Shown in pieces: positions 20,101 through 23,100 of a stretch of 64,000 bases of DNA. The notes beneath the pieces were generated by a model. That model was not told the DNA's origin. It saw only the letters and a program-made list of their open reading frames with translations, and ran no database searches. Within the stretch, counting starts at the first letter, position 1. The number at the start of each line of letters is the position of its first letter. Made by a program: the position numbers and the translations under genes. The stretch comes from Escherichia coli (GTDB lineage: Bacteria > Pseudomonadota > Gammaproteobacteria > Enterobacterales > Enterobacteriaceae), in assembly GCF_003991155.1 (NCBI RefSeq), contig NZ_CP031293.1, one strand, 5' to 3'.

Positions 20101-23100
20101 CAGCGCCTCAACAGCTGACGGCAACCTTGCAGGATAAAAATGGCAACCCACTAAAAGATAAAGAAATCACTTTCTCTGTGCCAAACGACGTCGCAAGTCG
20201 GTTCTCGATTAGCAACAGCGGAAAAGGCATGACGGATAGCAACGGGATTGCAATCGCCTCCCTGACCGGCACGTTAGCGGGCACGCATATGATCACGGCT
20301 CGTCTGGCTAACAGCAATGTCAGCGATGCACAGCCAATGACGTTTGTGGCGGATAAAGACAGAGCGGTTGTCGCTCTACAAACATCGAAAGCGGAAATCA
20401 TTGGGAATGGCGTGGATGAGACGACGCTGACAGCAACAGTGAAAGATCCTTTTGATAACGTGGTTAAAAATCTGTCAGTAGTCTTCCGCACCTCTCCCGC
20501 AGACACGCAACTGAGTCTGAACGCGCGTAATACTAATGAGAACGGTATTGCTGAAGTTACCCTTAAGGGCACGGTTTTGGGTGTTCATACAGCCGAAGCC
20601 ATACTGCTTAACGGCAACAGAGATACGAAGACGGTCAATATTGCGCCCGATGCCAGCAACGCGCTAGTCACGCTGAATATCCCTGCTCAACAGGTGGTGA
20701 CGAATAACAGTGACAGCGTGCAGCTGACGGCGACGGTGAAAGATCCGTCGAATCATCCGGTGGCGGGAATAACGGTGAACTTCACCATGCCACAGGACGT
20801 GGCGGCAAACTTTACCCTTGAAAATAACGGTATTGCCATCACTCAGGCCAATGGCGAAGCGCATGTGACCCTCAAAGGCAAAAAAGCGGGCACGCATACG
20901 GTTACCGCAACGCTGGGTAACAATAATGCCAGCGATGCGCAACCAGTCACATTCGTGGCGGATAAGGACAGCGCGGTTGCCGTTCTGCAAACATCGAAAG
21001 CGGAAATCATTGGGAATGGCGTGGATGAGACGACTCTGACGGCAACAGTGAAAGATCCTTTTGATAACGCAGTAAAAGATCTACAGGTTACCTTCAGTAC
21101 CAACCCGGCAGATACTCAACTTAGTCAGAGCAAAAGCAATACTAACGACAGTGGTGTTGCTGAAGTTACCCTTAAGGGCACGGTTTTGGGTGTTCATACA
21201 GCCGAAGCCACACTACCTAACGGCAACAACGGTACGAAGACAGTCAATATTGCGCCCGATGCCAGCAACGCGCAGGTCACGCTGAATATCCCTGCTCAAC
21301 AGGTGGTGACGAATAACAGTGACAGCGTGCAGCTGACGGCAACGGTGAAAGATCCGTCGAATCATCCGGTGGCGGGAATAACGGTGAACTTCACCATGCC
21401 ACAGGACGTTGCGGCAAACTTTACCCTCGAAAGTAACGGTATTGCCATCACTCAGGCCAATGGCGAAGCGCATGTCACCCTCAAAGGCAAAAAAGCGGGC
21501 ACGCATACGGTTACCGCAACGCTGGGTAATAACAATACCAGTGATTCGCAGCCGGTAACGTTTGTGGCGGACAAAACCTCGGCTCAGGTTGTCCTGCAGA
21601 TGTCAAAAGATGAGATCACAGGTAATGGCGTCGATAACGCAACGCTAACTGCAACGGTTAAAGATCAGTTCGACAATGAGGTGAACAATCTTCCGGTAAC
21701 ATTCAGCTCAGCCTCTTCAGGACTCACCCTGACCCCGGGAGTGAGTAATACCAATGAGTCTGGCATCGCGCAGACCACTCTCGCAGGCGTTGCCTTTGGT
21801 GAGCAGACGGTCACTGCATCACTGGCTAATAATGGTGCCAGCGACAACAAAACTGTGCATTTTATTGGCGACACAGCGGCGGCAAAAATTATCGAGTTGA
21901 CGCCTGTCCCAGACAGCATAATCGCCGGTACCCCGCAGAACAGCACCGGCAGCGTCATTACCGCCACAGTCGTTGATAATAATGGCTTTCCGGTGAAAGG
22001 TGTGACTGTGAACTTCACCAGCAGAACAAACTCTGCCGAAATGACGAATGGCGGCCAAGCCGTAACGAACGAACAGGGTAAGGCTACCGTCACTTATACC
22101 AATACCCGCTCCTCGATAGAATCAGGAGCGAGACCGGATACCGTTGAGGCCAGTCTGGAAAATGGTAACTCCACGCTTAGCACATCAATTAATGTCAACG
22201 CGGATGCGTCTACAGCACATCTCACCTTGCTACATGCACTTTTTGATACAGTCTCCGCAGGCGAGACAACCAGTCTGTATATTGAGGTGAAGGATAATTA
22301 CGGCAATGGTGTACCCCAGCATCAGGTAACCCTCAGCGTTTCACCAAGTGAAGGTGTGACCCTCAGTAATAACGGTATATATACTACCAACTACTACGGC
22401 TATTTTTACGCAAGCTTTACCGCTACAAAAGCCGGGGTTTATCAAGTGACGGCAACCCTCGACAATGGCGATTCGATGCAACAAACAGTGACCTATGTGC
22501 CGAACGTCGCGAATGCTGAAATCACGCTGGCAGCCTCGAAGGATCCGGTGATTGCCGACAATAACGATCTCACGACACTCACAGCAACAGTCGCTGATAC
22601 AGAGGGCAATGCGATAGCCAACACTGAGGTAACATTTACTCTGCCGGAAGATGTGAGGGCGAACTTCACGCTGAGCGATGGCGGTAAAGCGATTACGGAT
22701 ACTGACGGCAAAGCGAAAGTCACGCTGAAAGGTACAAAAGCAGGCGCTCATACTGTTACAGCATCGATGGCTGGCAGTAAGAGCGGACAACTGGTGGTGA
22801 ACTTTACTGCGGATACGCTCACTGCGCAGGTTAATCTTAACGTTACCGAGGACAATTTCATCGCCAATAACATTGGGATGACCACACTTCAGGCAACAGT
22901 GACTGATGGAAACGGCAACCCGTTAGCCAATGAGGCGGTGACATTCACGCTACCGGCAGATGTGAGTGCAAGCTTTACTCTCGGACAAGGCGGTTCCGCC
23001 ATTACTGACATCAACGGCAAGGCTGAAGTTACACTGAGCGGTACAAAATCCGGCACCTATCCCGTGACAGTTAGCGTGAACAATTATGGTGTCAGTGATG

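Follow-up and report, generated by a model that had tools for sequence, protein, structure and literature searches.

Like intimin, invasin and FdeC, the YeeJ adhesin of Escherichia coli has a stalk of Big domains. Bacterial adhesins with immunoglobulin (Ig)-like repeats or stalks share in-frame tandem repeats of domain size, with a strain-variable copy number that presumably changes their reach. For yeeJ, two variants have been described, the MG1655-type and the UMN026-type (Martinez-Gil et al. 2017, Sci Rep 7:11326; PMC5595812). The latter corresponds to MG1655 yeeJ with an additional 906-bp fragment encoding three extra Big domains, already described by these authors as a repeated section of the yeeJ sequence. 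The long allele was verified by polymerase chain reaction and cloned, and biofilm assays revealed no difference between the two variants; the hypothesis was raised that additional Ig domains serve to overcome shielding, and variation in the repeats of UpaH and Ag43 is cited in the same study (PMC5595812). Here, the yeeJ locus and the neighbouring glycosyltransferase gene yeeL are analysed in a stretch of 64,000 nt from E. coli (contig NZ_CP031293.1, assembly GCF_003991155.1), named ‘the window’. An original prediction, made from the letters of this DNA, had noticed repeats in yeeJ and suggested their recent duplication, as well as a possible glycosylation of the adhesin by the product of yeeL.

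The window carries the published long UMN026-type yeeJ allele, and the feature is essentially already known. Alignment of the K-12 protein (2358 aa) with that of the window leaves a single gap (window aa 1062–1363), and its 302 codons, or 906 nt, equal the size of the published fragment, whence the assignment; gene, locus and the difference of three Big domains from MG1655 are the same. Outside this gap, identity between the two proteins is 90–99% per block of 100 aa. The RefSeq start at 17244 is that of K-12 yeeJ, the maximal open reading frame beginning at a TTG codon upstream (17169–25223, + strand), and a 7980-nt coding sequence occupies the same place in the CREC-544 genome. Pfam matches to IAT_beta (PF11924, 6.3e-112), Big_1 (2e-262, 16 stretches) and Invasin_D3 identify a type Ve inverse autotransporter, in agreement with the RefSeq naming of the same locus. 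YeeJ would thus be an inverse autotransporter anchored by a LysM domain, with an extracellular stalk of Big_1 Ig-like domains linked in a chain; for the LysM and lectin domains, the description in PMC5595812 is followed. Collectively, the data are best read as a long UMN026-type yeeJ shaped by an old duplication of two domains and by unequal exchange between the copies, with a separate deletion in K-12 and an independent yeeL, a reading to which we give a probability of about 85%. The published account comprises two variants only; to it are added here the 609-bp, two-domain period of the repeat and alleles with one and three units, and also a chimeric A/B domain of K-12 at an 11-nt microhomology and a duplication older than the divergence of the compared alleles.

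Tandem Repeats Finder (TRF), with a longest period of 500, is blind to a 609-nt repeat and was replaced by a repeat search and a comparison at an offset of 609 nt. The search returned a repeat family with 609-nt spacing at the predicted place in yeeJ. Compared directly, 20347–20955 and 20956–21564 are 89.7% identical without gaps (63 differences over 609 positions), a level that chance cannot explain across 609 nt. Each unit comprises 203 codons and, as predicted, a pair of Big_1-type Ig domains, designated A (99 codons) and B (104 codons), and domain parsing gives the order B0, A1, B1, A2, B2, A3 (Table 1). In the matrix of nucleotide identities, A1/A2 reach 85% and B1/B2 95%, and all other domain pairs lie at 45–58%, in line with the greater divergence announced for the other Ig domains. 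Identity is uneven within the units: B1 and B2 are 97–100% identical over 20650–20900 (∼250 nt), and a patch of A1/A2 at ∼20440–20560 is merely 72–75% identical. The longest exact tracts measure 54 nt (shared by A1 and A2) and 68 nt (shared by B1 and B2). The tandem repeat first reported at 20347–21565 is therefore real, in frame and delimited to within 5 nt, but its identity was overstated, since ‘near-identical’ fits only the B pair and, in the A pair, the 5′ and 3′ portions.

Table 1. Position of the features discussed, in window coordinates except for the last row, which refers to two compared loci
Feature	Position	Strand	Description and basis
yeeJ, long 2-unit allele of a type Ve inverse autotransporter adhesin	17244–25223	+	2659 aa, RefSeq start MATKKRSG; open reading frame list and translation, Pfam
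Ig domain B0, diverged B-type relative preceding the repeat	20040–20351	+	53% nt identity to B1 and B2
Repeat unit 1	20352–20960	+	A1 20352–20648, B1 20649–20960; A1 94–99% identical to its orthologs in other strains
Repeat unit 2	20961–21569	+	A2 20961–21257, B2 21258–21569
Ig domain A3, diverged A-type relative after the repeat	21570–21869	+	56–58% nt identity to A1 and A2
Span absent from K-12-type yeeJ	20450–21355	+	906 nt (302 codons); alignment gap, junction sequences
Span absent from 1-unit alleles	20550–21158	+	609 nt (203 codons); placement arbitrary inside the tract shared by A1 and A2
Terminator-like hairpin	25243–25270	+	12-bp stem followed by a run of T; 20 nt past the yeeJ stop codon; consensus scan
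yeeL, intact stand-alone family 9 glycosyltransferase	25484–26536	-	350 aa, ATG start; converges on yeeJ, diverges from shiA
shiA (shikimate transporter), backbone gene flanking yeeL	26851–28167	+	Annotation of identical DNA in ECOD1 and CREC-544
Insertion sequence-hit yeeJ, compared loci	L001 3969–5182; L010 5550–6763		

The repeat region of yeeJ finds matches in 2921 of 5426 complete E. coli genomes (54%), and at least 80% of the query is covered at one place in 1199 of them. Query coverage does not separate copy numbers, and unit counts come from evenly spaced or best-ranked samples of 60 matches rather than from a full census. Among 60 evenly spaced matches, 23 have the span of the window (2601 nt, two units), about 30 are 906 nt shorter (K-12 type), one is 609 nt shorter (one unit) and two are partial, namely NA3664 (a single 2801-nt piece with a 3-unit query) and the 3-unit GF60; the rest are disrupted by insertion sequences (IS) or otherwise truncated. 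Among the 2921 genomes with the region, ∼40% thus have the 2-unit length, 26 of them at ≥99% identity. The 1-unit allele of WP8-S18-CRE-02 is without exactly 203 codons (window aa 1103–1305); it is an intact 7398-nt gene there and in O157:H16 Santai, and among the 60 best matches listed at least 32 share its length. Conversely, the 3-unit allele has exactly 203 codons more (2871 aa in GF60, an 8613-nt coding sequence in PCN033) and a 3-unit query is matched as a single piece in at least 29 genomes, from humans, poultry, dogs, mink, frogs and soil. Repeat copy number compared across strains is therefore 1, 2 or 3 and, with the K-12 form shorter by 906 bp, bears out the view of the repeat as a substrate for length variation.

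The composition of these alleles is informative. In the 1-unit allele, the A domain is of the A1 type and the B domain of the B2 type; the 3-unit allele reads, in order, A1, B1, A2, B1-like B, A2-like A, B2. Judged by copy type, both look like the products expected from unequal exchange and not like ancestral states. The possibility that the 1-unit allele is the ancestral state before duplication was considered and rejected, its A being A1-type (93–98%) and its B being B2-type (96–97%) instead of equidistant from both copies. In E. coli, RecA-dependent exchange can operate on exact tracts of 54–68 nt. Unequal homologous crossing-over, or slippage, between units at these tracts would add or remove whole in-frame units, and such gains and losses may have generated the 1-, 2- and 3-unit alleles of natural populations, with a stalk that would vary in length by whole Ig domains. 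Because all length changes are multiples of three, the variation would represent length polymorphism and not on/off switching. Unlike the units of other repeat adhesins, those of yeeJ are moderately diverged (85–95%) and few (one to three), and no phenotype was linked to length (PMC5595812); being diverged and few, they point to a slow polymorphism between lineages and not to high-frequency phase or length switching.

The short K-12-type allele probably has a distinct origin. At its junction, the 11-nt sequence GTGAAAGATCC is found in A1 (20439–20449) and in B2 (21345–21355), and this exact match sits inside a 23-nt stretch with 21 of 23 positions identical. The K-12 protein has a chimeric Ig domain at this place, with the N-terminal third from A1 and a B2-like remainder. 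A separate deletion, joining an A domain to a B domain at this 11-nt microhomology, would account for an allele 906 bp shorter than the 2-unit form.

The age of the duplication was addressed by comparing the A and B copies of the window with those of four 2-unit alleles (O157:H7 G5295, E400634, 33F4 and JNU), of the 1-unit WP8-S18-CRE-02 and of the 3-unit GF60. Between strains, A1 orthologs are 93–99% identical and A2 orthologs 92–98%; inside each strain, A1 and A2 are 83–89% identical, and this holds for every strain compared. The duplication would therefore be old and predate the divergence of the compared yeeJ alleles, because each copy is closer to its orthologs in other strains (92–99%) than to its own partner (83–89%). 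Synonymous divergence (dS) goes in the same direction: A1–A2 dS is 0.36 (window) and 0.31 (O157), B1–B2 dS is 0.195 (window) and 0.39 (O157), and ortholog dS between the window and O157 copies is 0.07–0.16. The lower B1–B2 value of the window points to a partial homogenisation of the B copies by gene conversion. The ratio of non-synonymous to synonymous divergence is ∼0.09 for B and 0.34 for A, suggestive of a stronger purifying selection on B. In summary, a block of two domains, A and B (609 bp, 203 codons), was probably duplicated in tandem long ago, and the B copies may later have been partly homogenised in the lineage of the window.

A recent in-frame tandem duplication in the window strain's own lineage, as originally suggested, accounts well for the B copies (95% identity overall, 97–100% over ∼250 nt), and in the 3-unit alleles the additional unit indeed seems younger, with A2 and the additional A 96% identical and B1/B2 97% identical in GF60. 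It is hardly compatible with the A copies, which are just 85% identical (dS 0.36), with the presence of position-specific orthologs of both copies (92–99%) in O157:H7, E400634, 33F4, JNU and GF60, or with a 2-unit length in ∼40% of the genomes carrying the region. The duplication is thus in frame as announced, but its recent date is improbable in view of the paralog dS (0.31–0.39) set against that of orthologs (0.07–0.16).

The second subject is yeeL. The 371 codons noticed at first correspond to a maximal open reading frame with a TTG start (25484–26599, - strand); this frame is indeed uninterrupted, but identical DNA in RefSeq encodes the shorter ATG-started protein WP_063117475.1. As first stated, yeeL is a pseudogene in K-12, so flagged by RefSeq for an internal stop, which falls at codon 234 (Q234*); closer alignment gives Gln at this codon in the window, with the frame intact. 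The gene is also intact in ECOD1, CREC-544, CAVP888, WP8, Santai and PCN033. Matches occur in 5268 of the 5426 genomes (≥80% coverage in 4939), and the main cluster of 350-aa YeeL proteins counts 10,923 member sequences; occasional IS1 insertions and truncations in Shigella are found. Intact yeeL is therefore the norm in E. coli and not special to the window strain, the nonsense allele of K-12 being the exception.

The motifs G40-D41 and D291-T292...H296 of YeeL are invariant across homologs. The protein passes the PF01075 threshold, over the C-lobe only, and its GT-B fold is closest to family 9 glycosyltransferases (GT9), WaaC and WaaF; it is WaaC/WaaF-like rather than TibC-like. A profile search of PDB sequences with YeeL found WaaC and WaaF, and did not find TibC at E values up to 10. 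Sequence identity to WaaC/WaaF (PDB 2GT1, 2H1H and 1PSW) and to the uncharacterised GT9 3TOV is just 12–14%, and yeeL, unlike the genes of WaaC and WaaF, lies outside the waa cluster. Scores stay far below the NCBIfam equivalog cut-offs for TIGR02193 (heptosyltransferase I, 37 versus 185.3 bits), TIGR02195 (19.7 versus 134.6) and TIGR02201 (17.2 versus 170.2), so that YeeL is not an equivalog of the lipopolysaccharide (LPS) heptosyltransferases I, II or III (WaaC, WaaF or WaaQ). Altogether, yeeL would be an independent, near-universal backbone gene for a probably active GT9 enzyme of GT-B fold, predicted to be of the LPS-heptosyltransferase type. No functional study of yeeL was found in the literature, papers naming both yeeJ and yeeL being mostly set in strain-engineering contexts. 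A conserved transporter partner of the major facilitator superfamily (MFS), suggested by MFS neighbours in E. coli, Pseudocitrobacter, Erwinia and Rosenbergiella, was rejected; the adjacency is considered coincidental because the Erwinia transporter is unrelated to E. coli ShiA and to the Rosenbergiella transporter (BLASTP E ∼1).

Could YeeL be a dedicated (heptosyl)transferase for the YeeJ passenger, as in the TibC/TibA or Aah/AIDA-I pairs, so that strains with an intact yeeL would have a glycosylated adhesin? The analogy rests on a GT-B catalytic core related to GT9 and on the position of the gene beside that of a type V adhesin. The BAHT family, to which TibC and Aah belong, is defined by an N-terminal β-barrel (residues 1–97 in TibC), a β-hairpin thumb, a four-cysteine iron finger in the C-lobe (Cys339, 342, 358 and 370 in TibC) and assembly into dodecamers (PMC4358343). 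The AlphaFold2 model of YeeL opens with a helix followed by a β-α-β Rossmann lobe, without N-terminal β-barrel, and its cysteines are just those at 114, 147, 152 and 260, with none past 260 to form a four-cysteine iron finger; YeeL also falls short of the length of roughly 400 aa (PMC4358343), and TibC is not its closest relative.

Genomic evidence argues in the same sense. The two genes are convergent and a terminator-like hairpin follows yeeJ, therefore no yeeJ–yeeL operon exists. Their occurrence is decoupled (5268 genomes for yeeL versus 2921 for the yeeJ repeat region), and so is their decay: the urinary isolate CAVP888 has an intact yeeL next to a frameshifted remnant of yeeJ, and K-12 has a dead yeeL next to an intact yeeJ. 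Outside E. coli, YeeL homologs share 54–73% identity, and none of the six contexts examined has an inverse autotransporter nearby: the Pseudocitrobacter ortholog (65%) lies between shiA/amn and mtfA without yeeJ, a gut metagenome contig likewise lacks yeeJ where a 73% homolog neighbours mtfA, shiA and amn, and in Erwinia, Rosenbergiella, E. albertii and an additional genome no inverse autotransporter occurs within 10 kb of the homolog. Conserved co-occurrence and co-orientation, as expected of a dedicated adhesin/glycosyltransferase pair, are thus not found. Neither PMC5595812 nor the survey of E. coli inverse autotransporters (PMC6714894) mentions yeeL or glycosylation. The ∼310 nt that separate the tRNA-Asn gene from the start of yeeJ in K-12-like genomes fit an insertion of yeeJ next to a pre-existing yeeL.

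Thus, YeeL is most likely not a YeeJ-modifying enzyme, and the glycosylation envisaged in the original prediction loses its ground with the convergent genes, the hairpin between them, their decoupled occurrence and decay, and the homologs devoid of a neighbouring inverse autotransporter. A dedicated pair appears highly improbable. The same scepticism applies to the variant in which YeeL, as a classical GT9 and not a BAHT enzyme, glycosylates the Ser/Thr-rich Ig domains of YeeJ, or another surface protein, wherever both genes are intact; if this were true, work on K-12 YeeJ would have dealt with an unglycosylated adhesin and YeeJ would be the first glycosylated inverse autotransporter. Finally, a mis-assembled, expanded repeat, a known hazard for ∼600-bp repeats that can be collapsed or expanded in short-read assemblies, can be set aside as the least credible explanation of the second unit, because the units are ∼10% different (63 of 609 positions) and independent complete genomes share the same 2-unit sequence (100% in CREC-544 and ECOD1, ≥99% in 26 genomes), with the reading frame kept and the long allele verified and cloned by others (PMC5595812).

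Several points weigh against an old duplication followed by unequal exchange, a separate K-12 deletion and an independent yeeL. The recombination mechanism is deduced from its end products, no event having been observed, and the frequencies of the variants rest on evenly spaced or top-ranked samples of 60. Loss of 297 bp from a 1-unit allele would yield the same K-12 product as loss of 906 bp from a 2-unit allele, and this form could have arisen by the former route. The low divergence of the B copies could also reflect stronger purifying selection and not only gene conversion; the difference in B1–B2 dS between strains (0.195 versus 0.39) favours conversion. A role of YeeL on YeeJ is formally possible.

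Beside its repeats, yeeJ varies in two other ways. It is repeatedly hit by IS elements in other genomes, for example by IS3 in ECOD1 (otherwise 100% identical to the window), by IS1203 in F374 and elsewhere by IS421, ISVsa5 and IS1, and a premature stop is reported in an ST410 subclone (PMC10786849), which suggests frequent loss of the YeeJ adhesin. In addition, the C-terminal ∼700 aa (∼23000–25220 in the window) exist as a strongly diverged second allele of Ig domains and lectin-like cap. Identity to the window falls to 44–83% over the last 700 aa of GF60 YeeJ, and the C terminus of WP8 is similarly diverged. The tip of the adhesin would, from these alignments, vary more than the number of stalk repeats.

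The surroundings of the locus are variable as well. In the window, an island of ∼11 kb (6009–17000) separates a tRNA-Asn gene (6009–6084) from yeeJ; in many strains, K-12 included, yeeJ follows the tRNA after ∼310 nt. The island contains an integrase, a RelE/ParE toxin–antitoxin pair, an IS3 element and a PAAR gene, as well as an RHS toxin gene (9795–13883, - strand) and RHS fragments downstream of it. The genes cbl and nac lie upstream of the tRNA-Asn gene that precedes yeeJ, and the window has three tRNA-Asn genes (regions 3715–6084 and 49266–51165). In K-12-like genomes, mtfA occupies the place of cbl and nac, and these arrangements point to a rearrangement, with respect to K-12, that involved the asn tRNA copies. 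A likely defence locus (31497–36891, + strand) occupies an island between yeeN and a tRNA-Asn gene. It encodes a 305-aa radical-SAM protein (partial match to PADLOC pVip models, 5e-20), a small protein whose gene is annotated DUF6375 in CREC-544, and a 1358-aa Avs2-like STAND NTPase (PADLOC Avs2, 7.7e-116) that is intact in the window. In CREC-544, IS100 lies between two coding sequences for hypothetical proteins at the position of the Avs2-like gene, which appears to be split there. At ∼54000–64000, pocR, pduF, the propanediol-utilisation genes pduABCDE and cobUST are found (annotation of the matching CREC-544 region); the pdu genes are presumably absent from K-12.

What does this mean for E. 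coli? Beyond bookkeeping, the significance is small, because the polymorphism between long and short yeeJ has been in print since 2017 and no difference in phenotype was seen. The additions are modest and comprise a 609-bp, two-domain unit that exists in one to three copies, a K-12 deletion at a microhomology, an ancient duplication and the independence of yeeL. For short-read typing or genome-wide association studies of yeeJ, mapping ambiguity is to be expected across these repeats. K-12 is atypical at both genes, since its yeeJ encodes a derived, chimeric Ig domain and its yeeL is a nonsense allele, which is relevant for users of K-12 YeeJ for surface display or as a reference in adhesin typing.

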